A stretch of DNA of 64,000 bases from Dehalococcoidia bacterium (lineage in GTDB: Bacteria; Chloroflexota; Dehalococcoidia; Lucifugimonadales; UBA3495): positions 600,990-664,989 of the forward strand of contig CBDBDE010000002.1 of NCBI GenBank assembly GCA_965203675.1, written 5' to 3'. Made by a program: the position numbers and the translations under genes. How positions within the stretch are numbered: position 1 is the stretch's first letter; each line of letters starts with the position of its first letter. Shown in pieces: positions 11,891-62,344 of this stretch. The notes below the pieces were generated by a model. It searched no databases. It was given only the letters and a program-made list of their open reading frames with translations, and had not been told where the DNA came from.

Positions 11891-12367
11891 TTACAGCAAC
11901 CCCAACGCCCCTTCCGGTGGGACTACGAAGAGGTTGTATTCCGACCGAATCCCGGAGGACTCCAAATCCTTGCGAAGCGGCGTATCTGTTGTTACAAGGA
12001 TCGCCCCTGTTTCCACCGCTAACCTGACGAGATACGTGTCGTCTTGGCTTCCTGAAGGGATATCCAGTTCTTCGTCAAATGGGGAAGAGGTATGCCCGAG
12101 TCCAACGATCTTTCCGTCGATTTGGAGCGCGTTCAGAAATGCCCTCAAGAGAGAAGGTCCTGGTTGCGGATAATAATGCTCCGGGCGATTTAGTTGGGCA
12201 AACATTTTGTCCCATAGGACATCATCCACCACTATCGTGTGGCAAATCTCGATTATCTGTTGGATTAGGTCAGCGCAAACAGGGCTGGGGTTTCCGTGCT
12301 CATCCAATCCTTGTTGCGCCAGGATGACCACGTTTTCGTCCAGGATGAAGCGGGGAGCGGGAGTCAT
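11891..12367 (-). CDS. PIN-domain-like nuclease (putative effector/toxin)
   Basis: 158 aa. N-terminal 'RFILDENVVILAQ' (first acidic residue), 'IQQIIEICH' (E), 'QDDTYLVRLAVETGAILVTTDTPL' (third and fourth acidic residues in the typical '..A.A...ga.LvT.D' context). Its ATG overlaps the ATPase stop (ATGA). Sampled lines are low GC (about 45-50%). Confidence 0.65.
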   Translation of the reverse strand: MTPAPRFILDENVVILAQQGLDEHGNPSPVCADLIQQIIEICHTIVVDDVLWDKMFAQLNRPEHYYPQPGPSLLRAFLNALQIDGKIVGLGHTSSPFDEELDIPSGSQDDTYLVRLAVETGAILVTTDTPLRKDLESSGIRSEYNLFVVPPEGALGLL

Positions 12368-13605
12368 GCCTTGGCGCGCAGGGCGTCGACATACCTCCGC
12401 ATCTCATCCAGGTCTGTTTCGAAGAAGCTCTTCAACCCTCCGGTAACCTGTCCCCGCTCGTTCACCTCGATCTCGCTGGCCGAGCAAACTCCCTCGTCGT
12501 CTTTCTCGAAGGAGTATATTGCCAGTTCGTCGGAGGACAGCTTCCCCTCCGCCACCGAGGTCAGAAGCCTCCCCACGATGTGTTCGCTATGGGTTGTCAT
12601 GATCAGTTGTTTTTCATCGGCCTTGGCCTGCTCCACCAGCACCGATGCCAGATCCGCCTGTGCTTTCGGATGCAAATGAATCTCCGGTTCCTCAATCAAC
12701 ACCGTCGCCCCCGGCACGGCCCTCACTGCCTCAAACAAAAGGTGAACCAGAGCGTTAGTTCCGAACCCTTCCATTGACAAACTGAAGTCACCCAATTTCG
12801 ATTCGGAGACCGGCTTTGCAGATTGCGGCGGAACTGTATCCGTTCTGAACCCGACTCCGGTCACCCTCTTCATTAAACGAGAAACCTTCTCAACATCGCG
12901 GCGGGAATATGCCAGCGTCGTGGCGGTCTTATCTTCCTGCGATCCTAACCCCTTGGCCCCAGATATATCCGTTGTAGCTTCAATCCCTAATGGGTAGACT
13001 CCACGGGTCAACCCCCTGCCAACTGGAACCGTTTTCATGTTGGACAAAAATCGTGTTGGCGCATTGGAAAGTTGATCCCAAATTGGTTGGTTTGGATTTT
13101 CACCTCCCGATCCATAACTAACCCTGAATCTATTGATTCCTCGCAATACCTCGTATCCAATTGAACCGTTTGGCGTTCTCGCTTCAAGGTTTCTACGATT
13201 CCGGGAGAACCGAATTTGGTGTTGTTGATCAGTGGTTTCCCATGTTGTGGATCCACGATCTTCCAGAAGGTCTGCCTTGCCAGAATACTCCAGGTTCACC
13301 TCAAATTTTATTGGTTTTTCGAGAACTTCCGTATCTGGAGAGAAGTATCCTGCGAACGACAACTTTGATTTGTCTTTGGCAGGGTTAATTGCACGAAAAG
13401 CAAGTGCTTCCGAATCGAAGGTTACCAACTCCCCTTCCAACCGCAACGGGTCAACGTCGTCCCTAGACTGCTTCAGTAACAACAACGCCTGCAAGACGCC
13501 AGACTTCCCGGTGCCGTTCGGGCCGATGAACACCGTAATCAGCTTGGGGTCGATGCTGACATGGCGGAAGCACTTGAAATTTTCCAGGGTGATGTTCGTT
13601 ATCAT
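12364..13605 (-). CDS. ABC/SMC-like AAA ATPase (AAA_15/AAA_21 type; C-terminus possibly DUF3696-like)
   Basis: 'MITNITLENFKCFRHVSIDPKLITVFIGPNGTGKSGVLQALLLLKQS' (Walker A), 'MEGFGTNALVHLL' (signature-like), 'ATVLIEEPEIHLHPKAQ' (Walker B/D-loop), 'IMTTHSEHIV' (H-loop). Start trimmed to ATG 13605 (GGAGAGG RBS). The 513-aa track ORF runs into the upstream gene. Confidence 0.8.
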   Translation of the reverse strand: MITNITLENFKCFRHVSIDPKLITVFIGPNGTGKSGVLQALLLLKQSRDDVDPLRLEGELVTFDSEALAFRAINPAKDKSKLSFAGYFSPDTEVLEKPIKFEVNLEYSGKADLLEDRGSTTWETTDQQHQIRFSRNRRNLEARTPNGSIGYEVLRGINRFRVSYGSGGENPNQPIWDQLSNAPTRFLSNMKTVPVGRGLTRGVYPLGIEATTDISGAKGLGSQEDKTATTLAYSRRDVEKVSRLMKRVTGVGFRTDTVPPQSAKPVSESKLGDFSLSMEGFGTNALVHLLFEAVRAVPGATVLIEEPEIHLHPKAQADLASVLVEQAKADEKQLIMTTHSEHIVGRLLTSVAEGKLSSDELAIYSFEKDDEGVCSASEIEVNERGQVTGGLKSFFETDLDEMRRYVDALRAKA

Positions 13606-13639
13606 GGCGACTGTCCTCTCCGCCAATTGTACACCAGGC

Positions 13640-14704
13640 CTACTCCACCAACTCCACCGCCCTCTGCGTCGCCGACCAGGGCAGCAGCCACGAGGAGTGC
13701 CGTCCGTCGCCGCCGGCCACCACGATGACGAACTTGTCCGGGTCCGTCGCCATGGGGATGAGAAAATCGTCGTCCTGAGTCTCCCACTCTTCTGGCCAGG
13801 CCCGCTCTCCGTAATGGCCCCGCCCCCGCAGTTGGCCCAAAGGCAAGCGGGCGTTTTCAAAGATGTACTGCTTGAGGCTGGAGCGGGTGTAACCCGCGGC
13901 GGCAATTTCGGCGGCGTGTTCCGGTCCGAGGACCAGGATGGGGGATGATCCCCGTCCCTGGTAGTGGTAGGCCGAAATGCCGACCGACCTCACCGAGTTG
14001 ACCAGAGTCTCCAGTACCCCTTGTCCGGTCTCCTGGGTGGCCTCGACAAAGGAGTAGATGCCCCGAACGGCGGACACTGTCACCGTGCTCTGCGAAGGTT
14101 CGTATCCTTGCTCAACGTGGAGCGGCTCCCAGGGATTGGCCTCCTGGTTTTCCGAGAAACAGAGGGTGTACTTGCCCGGCCAGCCCTGGGTGGACTTCTC
14201 CATCGTACGCACCGTTGCCCCGCCCATGTTCCGCATCGTCAGTCTGAGCGCGCGCCCGATGGTGGCGTTGGCTTGGTAGCCGGACCCGAAAACCGCCGTC
14301 CCCCCGTGGATGCCCAGCCGGTCCGCCGCCGGCCCGCTCACGATCACAGCCGGAGCCGCCCCGCCGGTGGTCGTGGTGATCGAGCCCACGTTGAACTGGG
14401 GCTGCATCACCGCGCGCACCGCCGCCAGGACCACCGGCATGTAGTCTGGAATGCAGCCAGCCATTACTGCATTGATGGCAACCTTTTCCGCCGTCACCGT
14501 CCCGTTGGCCGGCGGCATCCGCCCCAAGCTGTGCTCGGCGGACACCGGACAGGCTTCCAGCATGTCCAGCACCAGGTCCTCGGTGGGCGGGATGATGGGC
14601 AACCCATCTGTCCAGCCCTGTTCATAGAAGTGCTGGTTAATGTCGATGATGGAGCCGGAAACTTCCAGCTTGCTGGCCCGCGGGGCTGCGCTCTCCGAAC
14701 TCAA
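13640..14704 (-). CDS. Conserved hypothetical protein co-oriented with the UGSC selenoprotein gene
   Basis: 354-aa ORF with high GC3 and coherent sequence ('GWTDGLPIIPPTEDLVLDML', 'INAVMAGCIPDYMPVVLAAV', 'GSITTTTGGAAPAVIVSGP'). I recognise no family. TTG start at 14704 is uncertain. Confidence 0.6.
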   Translation of the reverse strand: MSSESAAPRASKLEVSGSIIDINQHFYEQGWTDGLPIIPPTEDLVLDMLEACPVSAEHSLGRMPPANGTVTAEKVAINAVMAGCIPDYMPVVLAAVRAVMQPQFNVGSITTTTGGAAPAVIVSGPAADRLGIHGGTAVFGSGYQANATIGRALRLTMRNMGGATVRTMEKSTQGWPGKYTLCFSENQEANPWEPLHVEQGYEPSQSTVTVSAVRGIYSFVEATQETGQGVLETLVNSVRSVGISAYHYQGRGSSPILVLGPEHAAEIAAAGYTRSSLKQYIFENARLPLGQLRGRGHYGERAWPEEWETQDDDFLIPMATDPDKFVIVVAGGDGRHSSWLLPWSATQRAVELVE

Positions 14705-14814
14705 ACCTTACCCCCGTATTCCCTTGTAACCCGCATTCCCTGGTAAACGGATAAACGGGCCGGAGGCAGCAAGTCCGTCCGGCCCGTCTTGTTCCATCCA
14801 TCAATGGTCCTTGA

Positions 14815-15354
14815 TCAGCGGATCAGCCCCTCGGCTATCTCCCCCGCCCGGTCCCGCGCCGTGGCCTGTATCTGGCCCCGGGTCTTGCTGGCGATGGGAT
14901 GCTCAATTACCACCACCGGATGGTCCGTCATCCCCAGCGTCCGCGCGCGGATTTCCGCCGAGCGGACAAACGCCTGGGTGATTACCGTCACCGCCGGGCG
15001 GCCCCGCTTTTCCGACTCTACCCCGTCGTGGAGACCCCACGTCGTGCAGGACCCTCAATCCGCAACGGCATGGATGATTGCGTCGCACTTGGCGGCCATT
15101 TCATCCAGCACCGAGGGTGGAGTGGGCATGCTCTGGCTGATCTTGCGGTAGGCCATGACCTCGGCCACGCCGTACTGCTCTTGCAGCACCCGGCCCAACT
15201 CTTCAAGGAACACGTCGGAGTTCTTCTTCCGGTTGTCGATCAACCCTATCTTCATCCCCTCCAGCCCGGACAGGCGGCTGGCGACGCCGTGGGTTTCGGC
15301 AACGTCCTCCGCCGCCGGATGCAGCAGCGCGTTCATCTGGGCAGCAGCCATCAT
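14815..15354 (-). CDS. UGSC-family selenoprotein (in-frame UGA read as selenocysteine at codon 100)
   Basis: The track ORF 15055-15354 stops at TGA (15055-15057). The same frame stays open for 79 more codons to TGA 14815-14817. I checked this codon by codon. The junction reads '...IIHAVAD-U-GSCTTWGLHDG...RPAVTVITQAFVRSAEIRARTLGMTDHPVVVIEHPIAS...'. AGGAGG RBS before ATG 15354. Confidence 0.75.
15022..15046 (-). promoter_or_regulatory. Candidate bacterial SECIS hairpin
   Basis: The mRNA after UGA is GGGUCCUG-CACGACGUGG-GGUCU-CCACGACGGG. The apical stem CGUGG/CCACG carries a GGUCU loop (compare the GGUC-containing loop of E. coli fdhF SECIS). It starts about 13 nt after UGA and the lower stem is imperfect. 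Confidence 0.45.
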
Positions 15355-15846
15355 CGTTCCTCCTGTGCTCCTTCCGCCGGAGCGGTCGTCCCTGCGATCT
15401 GAGCCGAGTGTATTGGCCGGGTGGAGGGGCAGTCAAGCGGCCCGCCGTTGCGGTGAAGCCGGAAAAAGGCTAAATGTGTGTCATAAGTGCCATTGGAGCG
15501 ATATTGAGCACGAAAATAGGGGGTTTGATGGCTCGCGGCGTGTCGCCAAGGGTCTTTGTTGTGCCATGGTCGCCGCATAATTGTGTCATTTTGTAGCAAA
15601 TTGTCGCATGAATGTCGCATCCTTCTCTGCAACTTCTGGAAGGGGCGACGGCATGAGGGGATCCGGTTGGAATATCACGTTCTAATGATACGTGGTAAGC
15701 CGGGAACTGGTAAGGGGCCGAGTGTCAGCCGCCGCCCTTGCACCCGACAACCCGGTGACAATTCCCGCCCGCCAATTGGGAAATTCGGCAGGCGGATAAT
15801 ATACTGTCACCAGCTTCCCTTGACTAAACCCAGCGGGGAGGACGAG

Positions 15847-35364: not shown

Positions 35365-36048
35365 GTGATCGAACTGCAGGACATAACCAAGGTCTACCGG
35401 ATGGGAAACGTCGAGGTGGCGGCCCTGCGGGGGGTCAGCCTGTCGGTGGCGGCCGGCGAGATGACGGCCATCATGGGGGCGTCCGGCTCGGGCAAGTCCA
35501 CGCTGATGAACATACTGGGCTGCCTGGACGTGCCGACTTCCGGCGCCTACTTGCTGGAAGGCGAGGACGTGGGAAAGCTGGGGGACGACCGGCTGGCGGG
35601 GATCCGCAACCACAAGATCGGGTTCGTGTTCCAGACCTACAACCTGCTGCCCCGCCTGTCGGCCCTGGCCAACGTGGAGCTTCCCCTGCTCTACGGCAAC
35701 GGCTCCAACCGGCGCCGCCGGGCCATGGAAGCGCTGGAGCGCGTGGGCCTGGGAGACCGGGTCCACCACAAGCCGACGGAGCTTTCCGGAGGACAGCAGC
35801 AGCGGGTGGGCATCGCCCGGGCCCTGGTCAAGGACCCGTCCCTGCTGATGGCCGACGAGCCAACGGGCAACCTGGACAGCCAGTCCAGCGAGGAGATCGT
35901 CCGAATCCTGCAGGGGCTGAACCGGGAGCAGGGACTAACGGTGGTCATCATCACCCACGAAGCGGACATCGCCGCCGCCACCAGCCGGGTGATAACCCTG
36001 CGGGACGGCCTGGTGGTGGAGGACCGGGCGCGAGCGGAGGCGGCTTGA
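35365..36048 (+). CDS. ABC transporter ATP-binding protein (MacB/LolD type)
   Basis: 'GASGSGKST', 'FVFQTYNLLPRLSALANVELP', '[15 protein letters not shown]', 'LLMADEPTGNLD'. Confidence 0.9.
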   Translation: MIELQDITKVYRMGNVEVAALRGVSLSVAAGEMTAIMGASGSGKSTLMNILGCLDVPTSGAYLLEGEDVGKLGDDRLAGIRNHKIGFVFQTYNLLPRLSALANVELPLLYGNGSNRRRRAMEALERVGLGDRVHHKPTELSGGQQQRVGIARALVKDPSLLMADEPTGNLDSQSSEEIVRILQGLNREQGLTVVIITHEADIAAATSRVITLRDGLVVEDRARAEAA

Positions 36049-36123
36049 CGGTTGACACGGCGCCGGGGAGCCGGGGAATATCCGCTACAGGATACGGGGT
36101 ATGAATCAGGCCAACGGGTGGGA

Positions 36124-39027
36124 ATGATGCCGCACCAGACGGAACCCAGCGCCAATAACGCCCTGGGGAACCTGCTCCGCAAGATGATGCGGGGCAGCGG
36201 GATTTACTCGGAAACAACGCAGACTTTCCCCGATTATCCGGGGCGGCACGCCGACGTGCTGCTGACGGCGCCGGGGCGGTCGCCGGTGGCCATCGAGGCG
36301 GAGTACCTGCCGGCGCCGGAGGCAGAAGACGACGCGAGGGCCCGGCTGGGCCTTCGCGTGGGCGGAGAGCCCCGGACAATAGAGGCGGCCGTCGCCGTGC
36401 GGTACCCGGCGGAGGTGGAGGGTGCCTACGACCTGGAAAAGACCCTGGCGGAGTGCCGCCTGTCCTACTGCGTGCTGTACGAGGACGGCAGCCGCTTCCC
36501 CGAATCCGGCTGGCTGAAAGGCGGGGTAGAGGACCTGGCCGACCTGGTGCGGCTGGTGTCGGTGCCCCAGAAGGAGGTGGACCTGGCGGCGGACAACTTG
36601 CAACAGGGCATCGAGACTGCGGCAACGGTCTTTGACCAACTGGACGGGACCTCCCCGGGGATTCCGCAGTCGCTGGCGCGGACGCTGGGCATGGCCAACG
36701 TGCCGCAGACCCGGCGGATGGCCTGCGCCATCATCGCCAACGCCCTGATTTTCCACGAGCGCATCGCGGGGATGTACGAGGGCATCAGGCCGCTGAACCT
36801 GGTGTGCGGGCCGGGAGTGGCTAATCCGCAGACCGTCACGCTGGCGGCGTGGGCGGACATCCTGAAAATCAACTACTGGCCGATCTTCGCCATCGCCCGG
36901 GACCTGCTGGGACAGGTATCGGCGGGAACGGCGGCGGAGATCCTGGCCACGCTGCGGGAGACGGCGCAACAGGTGGACTCGGCGGGAGTGACCAACGCCC
37001 ACGACCTGACGGGCCGCATCTTCCAGCGGCTCATCGCGGACCGGAAGTACCTGGCGACCTTCTACACCCTCCCCGCCTCGGCGGCCCTGCTGGCCCGGCT
37101 GGCGGTGGCGAAGATGGACGGGGTGGACTGGTCGGACGCAGAGGCCATCGGCAAGCTGCGGATTGGGGACTTCGCCTGCGGCACCGGGGCGCTGCTGTCG
37201 GCGGTGTACGAACAGATAGCGGCCCGCCACGAACGGGCCGGGGGAGACCCGGCGGCGTTGCACCGGGTGATGATGGAGGAAGTGCTGTACGGGTGCGACG
37301 TAATGCCCTCGGCGGCCCACATCACCAGCGCCACCCTTTCGGGGGTCCAGCCCGGCGTGGGATTCGGCAAGTCCCGGGTCTACACCATGCCCTACGGACG
37401 GCAATCGGACGGCACGGTAGCCATCGGGTCGCTGGAACTGCTGCAATCGTCCAACACGATGACGCTGTTCAACACCAGCGATCCGGCCTTGCAGACCGGG
37501 AGCCAGGGGGAAGAGACGGCGGCGCAGGTAAACGTGGACATTCCCGACGAGGGATTTGACCTGGTGATAATGAACCCGCCGTTCACCAGTAATACAAAAC
37601 ATCACGATGCTGACGACGGTGTGTTGAATGCTGCTTTCGCCGGCTACAACTCATCGGAAGTTGACCAGAACGAAATGGCTAACCGGCTCAGGAGATTGGC
37701 CCGCGGCATGACCTATCATGGGCACGCTGGGTTGGCGTCAGCTTTTGCATCGTTAGCACACCGAAAGCTCAAGCTAGGGGGTGTGATTGCTTTGGTTTTG
37801 CCCTTCACTGCTATCAACGGGGCATCATGGGGCAAGTTCAGAGAATTATTGGCAAAAAATTATTCTGAACTGGAGATTCTAAGCATCACCGCATCCGGGA
37901 ATGACATGTCATTTTCATCGGATACCGATATAGCGGAATGCCTAGTCATTGGTAGAAAGAATGTGGAGATCGAAAAAGAGTCTGAACTCCCACGAGCAAA
38001 TTTCACTTCTCTACGGAGACGGGCACAGGGATTCGCTCATGCGGCAACAGTTGCAAGCAGGGTAATTGGGAGAATATCCGCGCGTAGTATAGAGGATGGA
38101 CCATACGGCGGGACACCGTTAATGGTCGGAAATGAAATGGCAGGAGAGACGATTGCAGCACCTCTTTCGGATTACGAAAGCGGTTGGGGAACAGCCCGTC
38201 TAGCCGATGCCACCGTGTCACAAGTGGGACATTACCTAGCTGTTGGCAAGCTTTGGCTACCAAATATGCAGTCAGGCTTAGAGGTTCCCATGGTGCAGCT
38301 GGGCGAAATAGGACAATTAGGCGTCCACGACTCCATGTTGACATTGGCCACCCATCTTGGCCCGTTCACGAAAGAGCCACCCAGTCCGACGGCAACATAC
38401 CCAGCCCTTTACAACCACAATGCAAAGAGAGAAACCAGGCTGATTTGCGAACCTGATTCACAAATGCGTGTAAAGCAAGGGATGGAGGAAAGGGCTATCA
38501 AGCTTTGGGATACAGCCTCACGGTGTCTGATCAGCAGGGGGTTCCGTTTCAATTCACAACCTCTTGCAGTAGCTTTTGCGCAAAGCATTTGCCTCGGCGG
38601 GAGGGCATGGCCAAATGTAAAGTTGTCGAGCGAAAGGTTCGACTACGCATTTTCTATTTGGTGCAATAGCACCTTGGGGGTTATGGGCTATTGGCGCCAC
38701 TCGACCCGTCAGCAAGCAGGCCGAGGAGAAATGACTCGCGGTGGAATACGTCTTTTGCCCGTCCTGGACTTCCGCGAATTAACCGATTCGCAGTTGGCGA
38801 AGGCGGAGGAAATCTTCAACGAGTTCCGGGACAGGGAGCTGATGCCGGCCTACCTGGCGGATGCGGACCCGAACCGGGCCCTGCTGGACCGGCGGGTGGT
38901 GTGCGATCTGCTGGGGTTCGGGGAGGATGTTTACCAGGGGGTGCGGCGGCTGGCGGCCAAGTGGTGCGCCGAGCCATCGGTCCACGGCGGGAAGGCACGC
39001 CCCAAGGACGCGGGGCTGGTGATGTGA
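36124..39027 (+). CDS. Large gamma-class N6-adenine DNA methyltransferase, MmeI-like (type IIG-style) architecture
   Basis: 'ATFYTLPASAALLARL', motif I 'IGDFACGTGALLSAV', 'LYGCDVMPSAAHITSATL', motif IV 'FDLVIMNPPFTS', 'GGVIALVLPFTAI'. N-terminal 'HADVLL...VAIEAEY' resembles a PD-(D/E)xK core but lacks the Lys. About 400 aa of C-terminal TRD-like region. ATG 36124 preferred over TTG 36052. Confidence 0.8.
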   Translation: MMPHQTEPSANNALGNLLRKMMRGSGIYSETTQTFPDYPGRHADVLLTAPGRSPVAIEAEYLPAPEAEDDARARLGLRVGGEPRTIEAAVAVRYPAEVEGAYDLEKTLAECRLSYCVLYEDGSRFPESGWLKGGVEDLADLVRLVSVPQKEVDLAADNLQQGIETAATVFDQLDGTSPGIPQSLARTLGMANVPQTRRMACAIIANALIFHERIAGMYEGIRPLNLVCGPGVANPQTVTLAAWADILKINYWPIFAIARDLLGQVSAGTAAEILATLRETAQQVDSAGVTNAHDLTGRIFQRLIADRKYLATFYTLPASAALLARLAVAKMDGVDWSDAEAIGKLRIGDFACGTGALLSAVYEQIAARHERAGGDPAALHRVMMEEVLYGCDVMPSAAHITSATLSGVQPGVGFGKSRVYTMPYGRQSDGTVAIGSLELLQSSNTMTLFNTSDPALQTGSQGEETAAQVNVDIPDEGFDLVIMNPPFTSNTKHHDADDGVLNAAFAGYNSSEVDQNEMANRLRRLARGMTYHGHAGLASAFASLAHRKLKLGGVIALVLPFTAINGASWGKFRELLAKNYSELEILSITASGNDMSFSSDTDIAECLVIGRKNVEIEKESELPRANFTSLRRRAQGFAHAATVASRVIGRISARSIEDGPYGGTPLMVGNEMAGETIAAPLSDYESGWGTARLADATVSQVGHYLAVGKLWLPNMQSGLEVPMVQLGEIGQLGVHDSMLTLATHLGPFTKEPPSPTATYPALYNHNAKRETRLICEPDSQMRVKQGMEERAIKLWDTASRCLISRGFRFNSQPLAVAFAQSICLGGRAWPNVKLSSERFDYAFSIWCNSTLGVMGYWRHSTRQQAGRGEMTRGGIRLLPVLDFRELTDSQLAKAEEIFNEFRDRELMPAYLADADPNRALLDRRVVCDLLGFGEDVYQGVRRLAAKWCAEPSVHGGKARPKDAGLVM

Positions 39028-52092: not shown

Positions 52093-53496
52093 ATGCCAGG
52101 CAAGGAAGACATTGCCCTGATGGCCCACCTGATGCGCCGCGCCGGGTTCGGTGCGGGGCGCGACGAACTGGAGGCCAGGGCGGAGCAGGGCTATGAAGCC
52201 ACTGTGGAGGACCTGCTGAATCCCGACAATCACCCGCCGGTGGACGACGACGTGCTGTTCCGGTACTTCCCCAACTACGAAGGTGGGATGGCGCCGGTGC
52301 AGTCCCAGGCCCACTGGCTCTACCGCATGGTCAACACCCAGCGGCCGCTGGAGGAGAAGATGGTCCTCTTCTGGCACCAGCTTTTCGCCACCGGCAACTC
52401 TAAAATCGACAATCCGCCGGAGATGGTGCAGCAGATCGCCATGTTCCGCAGCCATGCCCTGGACCGGTTCCCCGACATCCTGGTCGAGCTGGCGAAAAAT
52501 CCGGCGATGATCTACTGGCTGGACAACAACGGCAACCACAAGGGTGCCATCAACGAGAACTGGGGACGGGAGCTGCTGGAGCTCTTCTCCATGGGCGTCG
52601 GCAACTACTCCGAGGACGACATCAAGGAAGCGTCCCGGGCCTTCACCGGCTGGACCATCGCCCCCAAGATTCCACGCCTGCCCCTGGGACGGTTCTACTG
52701 GGAGTTCGAGTACGATCCCGCGGACCACGACTTCGAGGAAAAGACCTTCCTTGGCGAGAAGGGAAACTTCAACGGCGACGACATCATCAATATCATTGTG
52801 CGGCAGCCGGCCACGGCCAGGTTCCTCTGCCGCCACCTGTACAACTTCTTCGTGGCTGACGAGGTCCAGGTGCCGGCGTGGAATGACACCCCGCCCAAGG
52901 ACCCCGAGGCAATCGAAATCCTGACCCAGTCCTACTTCGAGTCGGACTACGACCTGAAGGCCGTCCTGCGGACTCTGTTCAACTCGGACTTCTTCAAGAA
53001 TTCCCGCTTCACCCGGGTCAAGAGTCCCGCCGAGCTGGTGGTCAGCACCCTGCGGCTGTCGGGCGGCTTCAACGGGCCGCGGGAAGGCTATCAGGCCGCC
53101 GCCGCCGAGTGCGCCTTCCAGGGACAGGAACTGCTGAATCCCCCCAGCGTGGAAAGCTGGCACACCGGCGAGGAGTGGATTGACGGCGGCGCCCTGGTGC
53201 GCCGGGTCAACTTTGCCGCCAGGTACCTTTCCGACACCCGTATGCCGGGCATCAGCGCCATCGTCCAGCGCCTGAGGGAGCAGGGCAGCCTGACCCCGGA
53301 GCGGTTCGTGGACGAGTGCCTGGACCAGATGGGCCCTCTGAAAGTCGAGGAACCCACCCGCCGGGAGTTGGTCAACCAGGTCAGCGACGGCGGCGATATC
53401 CGCTGGGACAGCGACGAGGCCGCAGCGGACGCGGAGCGCCGGGCGGGAATAACGCTGGCGCTGGTGGCCGCGTCGAGAGAGTATCAGTTTGCCTAA
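52093..53496 (+). CDS. DUF1800 domain-containing protein (cassette A)
   Basis: 'HLMRRAGFGAGRDELE', 'MVLFWHQLFAT', 'PAMIYWLDNN...NENWGRELLELFSMGVGNYSEDDIKEASRAFTGWT' are hallmark DUF1800 segments. No signal peptide is evident. Confidence 0.8.
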   Translation: MPGKEDIALMAHLMRRAGFGAGRDELEARAEQGYEATVEDLLNPDNHPPVDDDVLFRYFPNYEGGMAPVQSQAHWLYRMVNTQRPLEEKMVLFWHQLFATGNSKIDNPPEMVQQIAMFRSHALDRFPDILVELAKNPAMIYWLDNNGNHKGAINENWGRELLELFSMGVGNYSEDDIKEASRAFTGWTIAPKIPRLPLGRFYWEFEYDPADHDFEEKTFLGEKGNFNGDDIINIIVRQPATARFLCRHLYNFFVADEVQVPAWNDTPPKDPEAIEILTQSYFESDYDLKAVLRTLFNSDFFKNSRFTRVKSPAELVVSTLRLSGGFNGPREGYQAAAAECAFQGQELLNPPSVESWHTGEEWIDGGALVRRVNFAARYLSDTRMPGISAIVQRLREQGSLTPERFVDECLDQMGPLKVEEPTRRELVNQVSDGGDIRWDSDEAAADAERRAGITLALVAASREYQFA

Positions 53497-53568
53497 ATCC
53501 CCCTGAGCCGGTGCGCCGGCTCTCCCCAACCAGTTTGCCCAAACAGCAAACCGCGGCAGGAGGAGATA

Positions 53569-54705
53569 ATGACCGCAACCAAGAAAGACCCCGTCCTGGT
53601 GATCCTGCAGCTCACCGGGGCCAACGATCCGCTGAGCACCGTCGTTCCCTACACCAATCCCCACTACCATGACGCACGGCCCAACGTGGGCATCGCCGCC
53701 GACAAGGTGCTGCCCATCAACGACACGCTGGGATTCAACCCCCACGTCGGAGCAGTCAAGCACCTGTGGGACCAGGGCAAGGTCGCCATCATTCAGGGCA
53801 TCGGCTACGAGAACTCGCCCCGATCCCACTTCCGCTCCATGGACATTTGGCACACCTGCGAGCCGGACAAGGTGGGGACGGAGGGCTGGGTCGGACGGGT
53901 CATCCGCGACCTGGACCCCAACGGATCCAACGTGCTCAAGGGAATCAACGTGGGACAGGGGCTGCCCCGGGCCATGGCCCTCAAGGGCGTTCCGGTGACG
54001 TCGGTGTCCGACCTGGAGTCCTACGGCGTGCTTACAGACGTTCCGGTGGTGGACAATCAGGCCGAGCGGGAACGGATGCTGGACATCTTCTCCCGCATTT
54101 ACTCCCCGACCATCGGCTCCGGCCCGGTAATGGACTACCTGAGCCAGACCGGGCGGAACGTGCTGGACGGAGCGGACGTCCTCAAGACCGCTCCCGATAA
54201 GTACAGCTCCAACGTGGAGTACGCTGCCTCTCCCATCGCCCAGGCTCTAAAAACCGTGGCGCAGGTGCACCTGGCCGATCTCGGGGCGCAGGTCTTCTAC
54301 ACCCAGCATGGCAGCTTCGACACCCACTTCAACCAGGTCATGATGCACACGCGCCTGTGGACGGACGTGGGGCAGGCCATCGGCAACTTCTTCGATGACC
54401 TGCGGGAGCACGACGCAGCGGACAACGTCATCATGATGCTGTTCACCGAGTTCGGGCGCCGGGTCAAGGACAACGGCACCGGCACCGACCACGGCGCAGG
54501 CGGTGTCGCCTTCGTCATCGGCGATCCGGTCCAGGGCGGGCTGTACGGGACCTATCCCTCGCTGGCTCCTGAGGATCTGACCCAGGGCGACCTTGCTCCC
54601 AGCTACGACTTCCGCGGCTTCTACGCCTCGCTGTGCGAGCGTTGGCTGGGGCTGGATTCGGCGACCATCGTCGGCGGAACCTACGAGCAGATGGCCTTCG
54701 TCTAG
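53569..54705 (+). CDS. DUF1501 domain-containing protein (sulfatase/alkaline-phosphatase-like fold) (cassette A)
   Basis: 'YTQHGSFDTHFNQ' and 'FTEFGRRVKDNGTGTDHGAGG' are typical DUF1501 motifs. GGAGGAG RBS directly before ATG, with no Tat or Sec leader. Confidence 0.8.
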   Translation: MTATKKDPVLVILQLTGANDPLSTVVPYTNPHYHDARPNVGIAADKVLPINDTLGFNPHVGAVKHLWDQGKVAIIQGIGYENSPRSHFRSMDIWHTCEPDKVGTEGWVGRVIRDLDPNGSNVLKGINVGQGLPRAMALKGVPVTSVSDLESYGVLTDVPVVDNQAERERMLDIFSRIYSPTIGSGPVMDYLSQTGRNVLDGADVLKTAPDKYSSNVEYAASPIAQALKTVAQVHLADLGAQVFYTQHGSFDTHFNQVMMHTRLWTDVGQAIGNFFDDLREHDAADNVIMMLFTEFGRRVKDNGTGTDHGAGGVAFVIGDPVQGGLYGTYPSLAPEDLTQGDLAPSYDFRGFYASLCERWLGLDSATIVGGTYEQMAFV

Positions 54706-60162: not shown

Positions 60163-61152
60163 GTGACTTCGACTGCAACCAGGACGCCAACCTATCGTTA
60201 TAGCTACACCATCGGCAACCAGGCTACGCCGCCGGCTCACGGCTTTTCCGGCCCGGTCAGTGTCGCCTGCGCCGGTGACGGCCTGCTGTACGTGATGTGC
60301 AGCTACTACGAGTACCAGCCCGCCTGGAAGTTCGTCGCCAAGTGCAACATGGACGAGGACTACCTGGGTGCCTTCGGTTCCTACGGGGCGGGCGATGGCC
60401 AGTTCACTTGGCCCAACACCGTCGCCGTTGACCGCACCGGCCTGGTCTACGTTTCCGACGAATGGCTCCAGCGCATCTCTGTCTTCGACGGGGACGGGCA
60501 GTTCATCAGGAAAATGGAGCAGCAAGGATTCTCCGACGGCCAGTGGGACCGGCCCGCCGGGATCATCTTCGATGCCGACGATAACATGCTGGTGGTGGAC
60601 AGCCTGAACAGCCGCGTTCAGAAACTCACCAAGGACGGCGAGTTCATCAGCAAGTTCGGGGAGTTCGGAGATGGCGAAGGCCAGTTCAACACTCCCTGGG
60701 GCATCAACCTGGACCGGGACGGCAACATCTACGTTGCCGACTGGCGCAACGACCGCATCCAGAAGTTCGACCCCGAGGGCCGCTTCCTCCAGCAGTTCGG
60801 CGGTCCCGGGGACGGGGAAGGCGGCCTGCGCCGTCCCAGCGGCGTGGCGGTGGACTCCCAGGGCTACGTTTACGTCTCCGACTGGGGCCACGACATCGTG
60901 CAGGTCTTCGACCCCCAGGGCGCATACGTAACCAGGTTCATCGGCGACTGCCACGGCTACTCCAAGTGGGCCGTAGCCCGCATGGCCTCCGACCCGGAGG
61001 GCATGTCCAAGGAGCGGGCGGTGGTCAAGGACTTCACCGTCGAGCGCGTGTTCTTCCAGCCAACCACGGTAAGAGTTGACGACCAGGACCGCATCCTGGT
61101 CGTGGATACCGGGCGGCACCGCATCCAGATTTACGAGCGGGTCCCCGAATAG
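60163..61152 (+). CDS. NHL-repeat beta-propeller protein (cassette B)
   Basis: GTG start after GGGAGG. Blades include 'GLVYVSDEWLQRISVF', 'NMLVVDSLNSRVQKL', 'GNIYVADWRNDRIQKF', 'GYVYVSDWGHDIVQVF'. Confidence 0.8.
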   Translation: MTSTATRTPTYRYSYTIGNQATPPAHGFSGPVSVACAGDGLLYVMCSYYEYQPAWKFVAKCNMDEDYLGAFGSYGAGDGQFTWPNTVAVDRTGLVYVSDEWLQRISVFDGDGQFIRKMEQQGFSDGQWDRPAGIIFDADDNMLVVDSLNSRVQKLTKDGEFISKFGEFGDGEGQFNTPWGINLDRDGNIYVADWRNDRIQKFDPEGRFLQQFGGPGDGEGGLRRPSGVAVDSQGYVYVSDWGHDIVQVFDPQGAYVTRFIGDCHGYSKWAVARMASDPEGMSKERAVVKDFTVERVFFQPTTVRVDDQDRILVVDTGRHRIQIYERVPE

Positions 61153-61216
61153 CGTCTCCCGGACCACCAGCGCTGGCCGCCAGGCCGCGACTCTCACAAC
61201 AAGAGGAGCAAACAAC

Positions 61217-62344
61217 ATGACCTCAACCCACAAGGACCCGATCCTGGTAGTCATCCAGCTCACCGGTGGCAACGACTACCTGAACACGCTGATTCCCTAC
61301 GGTGACCCGCTGTACTACGACAACCGCAGCAACGTGGCCATCCCAGCCGAGGAAGTGCTCCCGCTGGACGGCCATTTCGGGTTTCACCCTGCAGCGGCCC
61401 CCATCAAGGGCCTGTACGACCAGGGCAAGGTAGCCATCATTAACGGCGTCGGCTACCCCAACCCTAACCGGTCCCACTTCCGCTCCATGGACATCTGGCA
61501 CACCTGCGAGCCGGACAAGGTCGGCACCGAGGGCTGGCTGGGACGGGTCATCCGAGACCTGGACCCCAAGGCGGAGAACGTGCTGACCGGCGTTAACTTC
61601 GGACGCGGCCTTCCCCGGGCCCTGGCCCTCTCCGGCGTTCCTGTTGCCTCCGTCGCCGTCTTGGAGACCTACGGCGTCCTGACAGGCATCAGCGAGGAGC
61701 CGGACCGGAGCGAGGCGCTAGACGTCTTTGCCCGCATGTACGCCCCGACGCTGGGCAGCGGTCCGGTGATGGAGTACTTGGGGCAGACCGGGCTGGACGC
61801 GCTCAAGGGAGCGGACATCCTGAAGACGGCCCCGGAAAAGTACAACACCGAGATCGAGTACGCCGACTCCCCCATCGGGCGCAACCTGCAGGGCATCTCC
61901 AAGGTCCTGACCGCCGGCCTGGGCACCCGCATCTTCTACACCCAGCACGGCGGCTATGACACCCACGCCAACCAGGGGCCGGTGCATCCCAAGCTGTGGA
62001 CCGAGCTTTCCCAGGGCGTGTCTGACTTCTACGCCGACCTCAGGGCCCACGACATGGCCGACAACGTGCTGATGTTCGTGTTCACCGAATTCGGCCGCCG
62101 GGTCCGGGACAACGGCTCCGGCACCGACCACGGCTCGGGCGGACTCGCCCTGGCCATTGGCGACCCGGTGAAAGGCGGCATGTACAGCGAGTACCCGTCC
62201 CTTAAGGACGAGGACCTGCTGGAAGGCGACCTGCACTTCAACATGGACTACCGGGGCGTCTACGGGACCATGGTAGAGAAGTGGCTGGGCCTGGACGCCA
62301 ACGCTGTCACCGGCGGCAACTTCGAGCAACTCGACTTTGTCTAG
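61217..62344 (+). CDS. DUF1501 domain-containing protein (cassette B)
   Basis: Shares 'RSHFRSMDIWHTCEPDKVGTEGW', 'GRVIRDLDP', 'YTQHGG.DTH.NQ' and 'FTEFGRRV.DNG.GTDHG' with 53569-54705. Start at ATG 61217 (GAGGAG RBS), with no leader peptide. Confidence 0.8.
   Translation: MTSTHKDPILVVIQLTGGNDYLNTLIPYGDPLYYDNRSNVAIPAEEVLPLDGHFGFHPAAAPIKGLYDQGKVAIINGVGYPNPNRSHFRSMDIWHTCEPDKVGTEGWLGRVIRDLDPKAENVLTGVNFGRGLPRALALSGVPVASVAVLETYGVLTGISEEPDRSEALDVFARMYAPTLGSGPVMEYLGQTGLDALKGADILKTAPEKYNTEIEYADSPIGRNLQGISKVLTAGLGTRIFYTQHGGYDTHANQGPVHPKLWTELSQGVSDFYADLRAHDMADNVLMFVFTEFGRRVRDNGSGTDHGSGGLALAIGDPVKGGMYSEYPSLKDEDLLEGDLHFNMDYRGVYGTMVEKWLGLDANAVTGGNFEQLDFV

Follow-up and report, generated by a model that had tools for sequence, protein, structure and literature searches.

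We analysed a 64,000-nt stretch of DNA (hereafter the window; ~63% GC) from a Dehalococcoidia bacterium (contig CBDBDE010000002.1, positions 600,990 to 664,989), the minus strand of which carries a gene of the UGSC selenoprotein family that is interrupted by an in-frame UGA codon. Positions are those of the window, and the coordinates given for the gene refer to the minus strand. The list of open reading frames (ORFs) presents the locus as two pieces, one of 99 amino acids (aa; 15055..15354) and one of 58 aa (14815..14991, with a GTG start at 14991). The sequence and its translation show an ORF that starts at ATG 15354-15352, runs for 99 codons and meets TGA 15057-15055, past which the frame continues for 79 sense codons (GSCTTWGLHDG...GLIR) to a stop at TGA 14817-14815. 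The ORF geometry on which the initial annotation was built, namely a 99-aa ORF ending at TGA 15055-15057 in a frame that stays open for 79 more codons to 14815, is confirmed by this reading. The junction, proposed as AVAD-U-GSC, is read in the sequence as AVAD-TGA-GSC (in full, ...IIHAVAD-TGA-GSCTTWGLHDG), and decoding of the UGA would yield the peptide AVAD-U-GSCTTWGLHDGVESEK. The features of the gene are listed below, where "35 sequences" stands for the window plus 34 homologous loci.

14815..15354, minus strand: complete gene of a predicted UGSC-family selenoprotein, 179 codons including selenocysteine (Sec), plus the terminal TGA at 14815-14817

15055..15057, minus strand: in-frame UGA, putative Sec as residue 100 in the motif D-U-G-S-C; TGA in 35/35 sequences, Cys in most full-length distant homologs

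14818..15054, minus strand: C-terminal half, 79 codons, reachable only via decoding of the UGA, the first in-frame start past the UGA being GTG 14991

15018..15049, minus strand: hairpin resembling a selenocysteine insertion sequence (SECIS), nt 9-40 after the U of the UGA; minimum free energy structure of the segment, -11.9 kcal/mol

UGSC family membership across the UGA

An open frame alone is unremarkable at 63% GC. What makes the observation non-random is a family match that spans the UGA, together with conservation of the arrangement in 34 other genomes. Profile searches were carried out on the 179-aa translation with U written as C. The product scores 173 bits against Pfam PF24696 'UGSC family' (cutoff 25; E = 8e-51), with residues 10-177 aligned to positions 2-170 of the 172 positions of the profile, and 137.5 bits against NCBIfam NF041046 'UGSC family (seleno)protein' (curated cutoff 125; residues 33-175). 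All features of the family that can be examined computationally were found in the window gene, that is, scores above the profile cutoffs and U/C-G-S-C at the conserved position. The proposal that homologs would cover both halves of the protein is borne out by these two profiles, which span the UGA, and by the genomic matches described next.

A locus scan restricted to one genome per species identified, using tblastn, 34 loci with matches over query residues ~1-179. Most are in Dehalococcoidia metagenome-assembled genomes (MAGs), where the nearest relatives of the window gene are also found; the others are in some Rhodospirillaceae, Rickettsiales and other Alphaproteobacteria, one Nitrospinota and one Betaproteobacteria. 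The codon homologous to TGA 15057-15055 is TGA in all 34 loci, never TAA or TAG, and GSC comes next. The C-terminal half is open in these loci at 51-95% identity, and its first 21 codons, which precede the next possible start, are the part of the protein under the strongest conservation, with G, S, C, W, G, L, H and D present in 35/35 sequences and synonymous variation at the codons of several of these residues.

Protein databases give a complementary picture. A search of 5.8 billion proteins returned mostly products of 98-99 aa, which are homologs that gene callers had ended at this TGA as well, along with three full-length entries carrying Trp at the Sec position and one carrying a true Cys. 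The exact 99-aa product of the window has no record in public assemblies, and its nearest relative, 96-97% identical, is found in a Dehalococcoidia MAG. The three Trp entries (P0001, P0002 and P0003) are metagenome proteins from the Joint Genome Institute (JGI) recorded as AVADWGSC. They are probably an annotation artefact of contigs translated with a table in which UGA encodes Trp, a practice that hides selenoproteins as normal proteins. More distant relatives were collected with a profile search of 1.84 billion cluster representatives, which returned 2,557 relatives, 537 of them at E <= 1e-10. The 150 best-scoring of these 2,557 include 99 full-length sequences, and about 90 of the 99 have Cys in the Sec column, 68 of them (68/99) within the motif CGSC; the distant relatives that were tested are all full-length members of PF24696. 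The expectation that Sec or Cys would align at this position in relatives is upheld by these counts and by the TGA found in every one of the 35 sequences.

The UGSC family has been known since 2005-2008, and the window gene is a further member of it, in a Dehalococcoidia genome. The family was described in the Sargasso Sea and Global Ocean Sampling (GOS) selenoproteome studies of Zhang and Gladyshev, with 255 Sec and 21 Cys forms, and few selenoprotein families are more abundant in aquatic metagenomes (PMC2398784). It is listed with NF041046 in recent reviews (PMC13188914, PMC9312934). The initial annotation rightly described a named family of uncharacterised function (PMC2398784, PMC13188914). 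The window gene shares with the family the D-U-G-S-C motif, the length and whole-domain profile scores above the cutoffs, and Sec outnumbers Cys among its close relatives, as reported before (PMC2398784). Nothing essential sets it apart, save that the structural model presented below is flavodoxin-like while a thioredoxin (Trx)-like fold was suggested in 2008.

We put at about 0.9 the probability that the gene truly belongs to the UGSC family and that its UGA is decoded, with Sec the most likely residue. The initial annotation of a genuine 179-aa selenoprotein is supported by the profiles that run across the UGA and by the TGA conserved in 35/35 sequences along with the downstream half. In practical terms, a single 179-aa selenoprotein should replace the 99-aa and 58-aa fragments. 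The same truncation at the UGA affects most database entries of the family, and in a few the codon has been wrongly translated as Trp. How bacteria are understood to decode selenocysteine is unaffected by these results.

The SECIS-like hairpin and decoding of the UGA

The hairpin that had been proposed downstream of the UGA, with a CGUGG/CCACG stem and a GGUCU loop at a spacing like that of SECIS elements, is present at that place. Its 5′ arm CGUGG occupies 15041-15037, its loop GGUCU 15036-15032 (nt 22-26 from the U of the UGA) and its 3′ arm CCACG 15031-15027. The bacterial SECIS rule calls for a stem of 6-8 bp and a conserved loop G ~20 nt after the UGA (PMC4605307). The hairpin conforms to it: the stem-loop lies directly 3′ of the UGA, and its apical loop contains a conserved G. 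An alignment of 32 distinct segments of 60 nt shows no variation over nt 17-26 after the U of the UGA (CGUGGGGUCU; the 5′ arm together with the loop, columns 20-29). Codon usage follows the same pattern. The loop encodes Gly by GGT in 35/35 sequences, whereas all four Gly codons occur at three other conserved Gly positions of the gene; for Thr in the 5′ arm only ACG occurs (20/20), for Leu in the hairpin zone only CTC or CTA, and mean synonymous entropy is 0.87-0.95 in the hairpin zone versus 1.33 elsewhere. Conservation of the RNA element exceeds the needs of the protein.

Comparison with the SECIS element of Escherichia coli fdhF reveals a close likeness. Both have GGUC at nt 22-25 from the U of the UGA, followed by U, both hairpins begin ~10-11 nt after the UGA, and their stabilities are comparable (-11.9 kcal/mol for UGSC, -14.2 kcal/mol for fdhF). 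The fdhF element is described with a bulged U17, in place of which the UGSC hairpin has an A-A mismatch at nt 16/32; in a further difference, the lower stem of the UGSC hairpin is poorly conserved among homologs. From its sequence, the hairpin fits a bacterial SECIS element, and binding by SelB is predicted. In this scheme, which is the usual one in bacteria, SelB-GTP would dock on the GGUCU loop with its Sec-tRNA(Sec) and supply the ribosome with Sec while competing with release factor 2 (RF2).

Several observations weigh against this reading. The 66-nt fold is not more stable than shuffled sequences (z = 0.65); nt 9-40 folded alone adopt exactly the proposed hairpin as their minimum-energy structure. 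RNAalifold favours a different weak fold, and an Rfam scan of the whole window found no family at the gathering threshold. In the alignment, 78.6% of cells are paired and three pairs show double changes, counts that are not above those of shuffles. The apical stem, being invariant, yields no covariation and the lower stem is often mismatched; covariation is uninformative here because the stem does not vary. In addition, ARAGORN detected no tRNA-Sec in the window or in 35 loci, the window being devoid of any tRNA, and a Pfam scan of 30 further window ORFs and tblastn with E. coli SelA, SelB and SelD against the window and 35 loci revealed no selA, selB or selD, either in the 64 kb of the window or across the ~400 kb that flank the homologous genes. 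Indirect support at the level of the class comes from a 2026 database paper, in which Dehalococcoidia MAGs, with 46-49 selenoprotein genes, are listed with the bacteria richest in selenoproteins (PMC13326102). A scan of the window for other genes with an in-frame TGA and coding signal on both sides returned no credible case besides the UGSC gene.

The meaning of UGA in this genome can be assessed from the stop codons of the 34 well-supported genes of the window, which are TAG in 18 cases, TGA in nine (including the end of the UGSC gene itself) and TAA in seven. A reassigned genetic code is excluded because TGA terminates nine of the 34 genes, UGSC among them. That TAG is the commonest stop is unusual for a genome of 63% GC.

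Three other accounts of the interrupted frame were weighed. The gene could be a pseudogene in which a Cys codon (TGC or TGT) mutated to TGA, so that a 99-aa fragment or nothing would be made. Cys forms of the protein do exist, a single base change separates either Cys codon from TGA, and the window holds no Sec machinery; however, independent nonsense mutations would not be maintained as TGA at one codon in 35/35 sequences from four lineages, and the downstream half is free of stops and frameshifts, keeps 51-95% identity under abundant synonymous change and does not show the ratio of nonsynonymous to synonymous substitution rates (dN/dS) near 1 that decay would produce. Alternatively, two separate small genes could encode a 99-aa protein and a 58-aa protein starting from GTG 14991, exactly the pieces that the gene callers of the databases report. 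This division is at odds with the 21 codons that separate the TGA from the first possible start, which are the most conserved stretch, with the single continuous domain formed by the Cys-form homologs and the Pfam model, and with the predicted structure described below, in which strand 3, the motif and helix 3 run unbroken across the junction. Because these 21 most conserved codons vary synonymously and precede the next start, we regard both the pseudogene and the two-gene accounts as excluded for practical purposes, each retaining a negligible probability; the continuous Cys forms agree with this for both. Read-through of the UGA as something other than Sec, either by a near-cognate Trp or Cys tRNA or under a reassigned code, would agree with the W recorded in the three JGI homologs and with the lack of a Sec machinery gene in the 64-kb window. 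Yet TGA is a normal stop for nine of the 34 window genes, homologs without TGA have Cys rather than Trp or Gly, the W entries are most simply explained by the UGA=Trp table, and the conserved hairpin, with a GGUC of the fdhF type at the fdhF position, points to SelB-dependent decoding. We consider such read-through very unlikely, and decoding of the UGA as Sec is the reading retained below.

Predicted fold, conserved partner and proposed role

The gene upstream signals, the gene that lies downstream and the spacer between the two are as follows.

15359..15364, minus strand: Shine-Dalgarno-like AGGAGG, 4 nt upstream of the ATG, from direct reading of the sequence

15407..15436, minus strand: sigma-70-like promoter match TTGACT-18-TACACT, ~50 nt upstream of the start; a consensus match only, one found against 0.4 expected

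13640..14704, minus strand: conserved partner gene, 354 aa, directly downstream of UGSC in 35/35 loci

14757..14785, minus strand: GC-rich hairpin (GGGCCGGA...UCCGGCCC) followed by U-rich GUUUAUCCGUUUA, within the 110 nt that separate UGSC from the partner gene

For the UGSC protein, structure prediction indicates an alpha/beta domain of the flavodoxin/Rossmann-like type with five strands. The AlphaFold model of the 62%-identical homolog P0001 is confident (predicted local distance difference test, pLDDT, 81; predicted template modelling score, pTM, 0.79) and contains five beta-alpha units. In this model strand 3 ends and helix 3 begins at the Sec position, and strand 3, the motif and helix 3 are continuous. 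The D-U-G-S-C motif would sit at the C-terminal end of a strand and the N-terminus of a helix, the usual place for a redox-active or nucleophilic U/CxxC pair. Foldseek searches of the PDB with the model returned only generic flavodoxin-like domains at template modelling (TM) scores of 0.3-0.5. Flavodoxin, lumazine synthase, RpiB and the like share with the UGSC prediction five parallel strands alternating with helices, but their identity to it is 10-19%, their TM scores are 0.3-0.5 and they have no UxxC site. The likeness, as judged from the model, is one of fold class and not of homology.

A Trx-like fold was suggested for UGSC in 2008 (PMC2398784), and the protein could accordingly be a stand-alone thiol oxidoreductase of the Trx fold that acts without a specific partner. 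Its UxxC motif is typical of such proteins. This suggestion is not supported by our results, because the five-stranded model is flavodoxin-like and no thioredoxin fold occurs among the top 50 Foldseek matches of the P0001 model. Moreover, UGSC has the partner gene beside it in 35/35 loci, and at least nine representatives at 50% identity are fusions of the two. We regard the stand-alone Trx-fold account as unlikely. Of all the results, the genomic context is the most informative.

These complete UGSC-plus-partner fusions are of the Cys form and measure 485-657 aa, and some members of the partner family are in-frame fusions that start with the post-UGA half of UGSC. A fusion of UGSC with a domain termed 'Unknown_1' has been reported (PMC2398784), and 'Unknown_1' is presumably the partner found here. 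The partner family comprises at least 7,980 clusters at 90% identity. Among homologs P0121-P0240, the invariant or nearly invariant motifs are GWTDGLPxIPPT, VEKVAxNAVMAGC, TTGG, NATIGRALRLxxRNxGG, CFAEN and VVAGGDGRHSxW; the Cys residues C84 and C182 are nearly invariant, and many polar residues are invariant. TTGG occupies residues 112-115 and DGRH, inside the last motif, residues 333-336. The partner has no match to a Pfam or NCBIfam family and no relative in the PDB by sequence or profile search. Its AlphaFold model is confident (pLDDT 84), and the Foldseek matches of that model are weak and mutually inconsistent. Homology to class I fumarate hydratase, to a cyclic amide hydrolase of the Toblerone fold or to PrpD was considered and rejected on Foldseek TM scores of 0.15-0.28 and their inconsistency.

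The 110-nt spacer between the two genes folds at -39.6 kcal/mol overall. Its hairpin at 14757-14785 was not flagged by a simple terminator scan. This hairpin might stabilise the mRNA, or it might act as a partial terminator or attenuator and so control the proportion in which the two proteins are made.

No third neighbour of the pair is common to the 35 loci beyond close relatives, and several kinds of genes recur nearby. A TrxB-like flavoprotein with a CATC or CADC motif is encoded near the pair in six loci representing three arrangements. In two of these loci (L040 and L041), the TrxB-like gene is directly downstream of the pair and is followed by three arginase-family genes. Genes for fused hydantoinase/oxoprolinase A+B proteins are next to or near the pair in nine loci from two phyla (L010, L012, L013 with a product of ~1,264 aa, L016, L021, L023, L027, L031 and partly L026). 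Genes for TauD-family dioxygenases are found near it in five proteobacterial loci.

Partner adjacency and fusions, together with the TrxB-like, hydantoinase/oxoprolinase and TauD neighbours, suggest that UGSC and the 354-aa partner could form one two-part enzyme. In it, UGSC would serve as the selenol/thiol redox subunit and alternate between a selenol/thiol form and a selenenylsulfide, and the partner would be the substrate-binding subunit, with reducing power probably drawn from a system of the thioredoxin-reductase type. The hydantoinase/oxoprolinase and TauD-type neighbours hint at catabolism of small nitrogen-containing organic compounds. We give this two-subunit redox mechanism, in which the enzymatic role is deduced from context, about an even chance, and any particular substrate class a far smaller one. 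Glycine, sarcosine and betaine reductases and D-proline reductase offer a loose functional analogy through GrdB and PrdB (PF07355), which are UxxC selenoprotein subunits that work with a separate substrate-binding subunit and are recycled by the thioredoxin system; TrxB-like genes are likewise present near some UGSC loci. The UxxC motif of glycine/proline reductase selenoprotein B has been listed (PMC2398784). The analogy is functional only, as PF07355 has no match at E <= 0.01 in the window protein or at E <= 1 in ten other family members, and, unlike in these reductases, the UGSC partner is not of the PrdA/GrdE type by Pfam.

Some results count against the two-part enzyme. The TrxB-like and hydantoinase neighbours occur in a minority of loci, and neither UGSC nor the partner has a relative of known function by PDB sequence and profile searches or by Foldseek. 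The structural model was built on P0001, which has Trp at the Sec position, and not on the window protein. Viewed from the partner side, a split UGSC gene lies upstream in two of three distant homologs examined. For the third, P0237 at locus L039 (4001-5137, 54% identical), the 4 kb flanking it on each side contain no UGSC gene, which indicates that the partner can occur alone. Genes at L039 near this homolog encode a peptidase S58 (DmpA-like) and S15/alpha-beta hydrolases.

What is new here is the predicted flavodoxin-like fold, the unclassified partner in 35/35 loci with its fusions, and the two-part thiol/selenol redox enzyme proposed for the pair. Partner linkage, predicted fold and the recurrent TrxB-like and hydantoinase/oxoprolinase neighbours provide a handle on UGSC function. 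A bolder and more tentative proposal, which we hold to be somewhat doubtful, is that UGSC and its partner may constitute a widespread and unrecognised two-component, sometimes single-chain, selenoenzyme, a reductase that would act on a small nitrogen-containing metabolite with recycling of the thioredoxin-reductase type and a link to hydantoinase/oxoprolinase, in aquatic Dehalococcoidia and Alphaproteobacteria.

Other features of the window

A low-GC island (11891-13905, minus strand; 54.5% GC versus ~63% for the window) lies between the partner gene and a gene of the xanthine dehydrogenase family. It encodes a 513-aa AAA_15/AAA_21 ATPase, for which PADLOC gives NsnB as the best match (over the full length, at 157 bits) and AriA/GajA/PtuA-like proteins as weaker ones, and, after it, a 158-aa ORF without a family match. 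The ATPase/158-aa pair is present in only some close relatives (L001/L002, L006 and L034), and for this reason the island looks like an inserted anti-phage defence cassette.

On the plus strand, a 991-aa ORF with an Eco57I-type restriction-modification methylase domain (36052-39027) follows, in the same frame, an ORF that ends in TGA (35365-36048); we take these two to be adjacent genes and not a case of recoding. The plus strand also carries a DUF1800 and DUF1501 gene pair and a second DUF1501 gene (52093-54705 and 61076-62344), and the Pfam profile match of both DUF1501 proteins is limited to their C-terminal part. Four genes for luciferase-like monooxygenases are scattered in the window.

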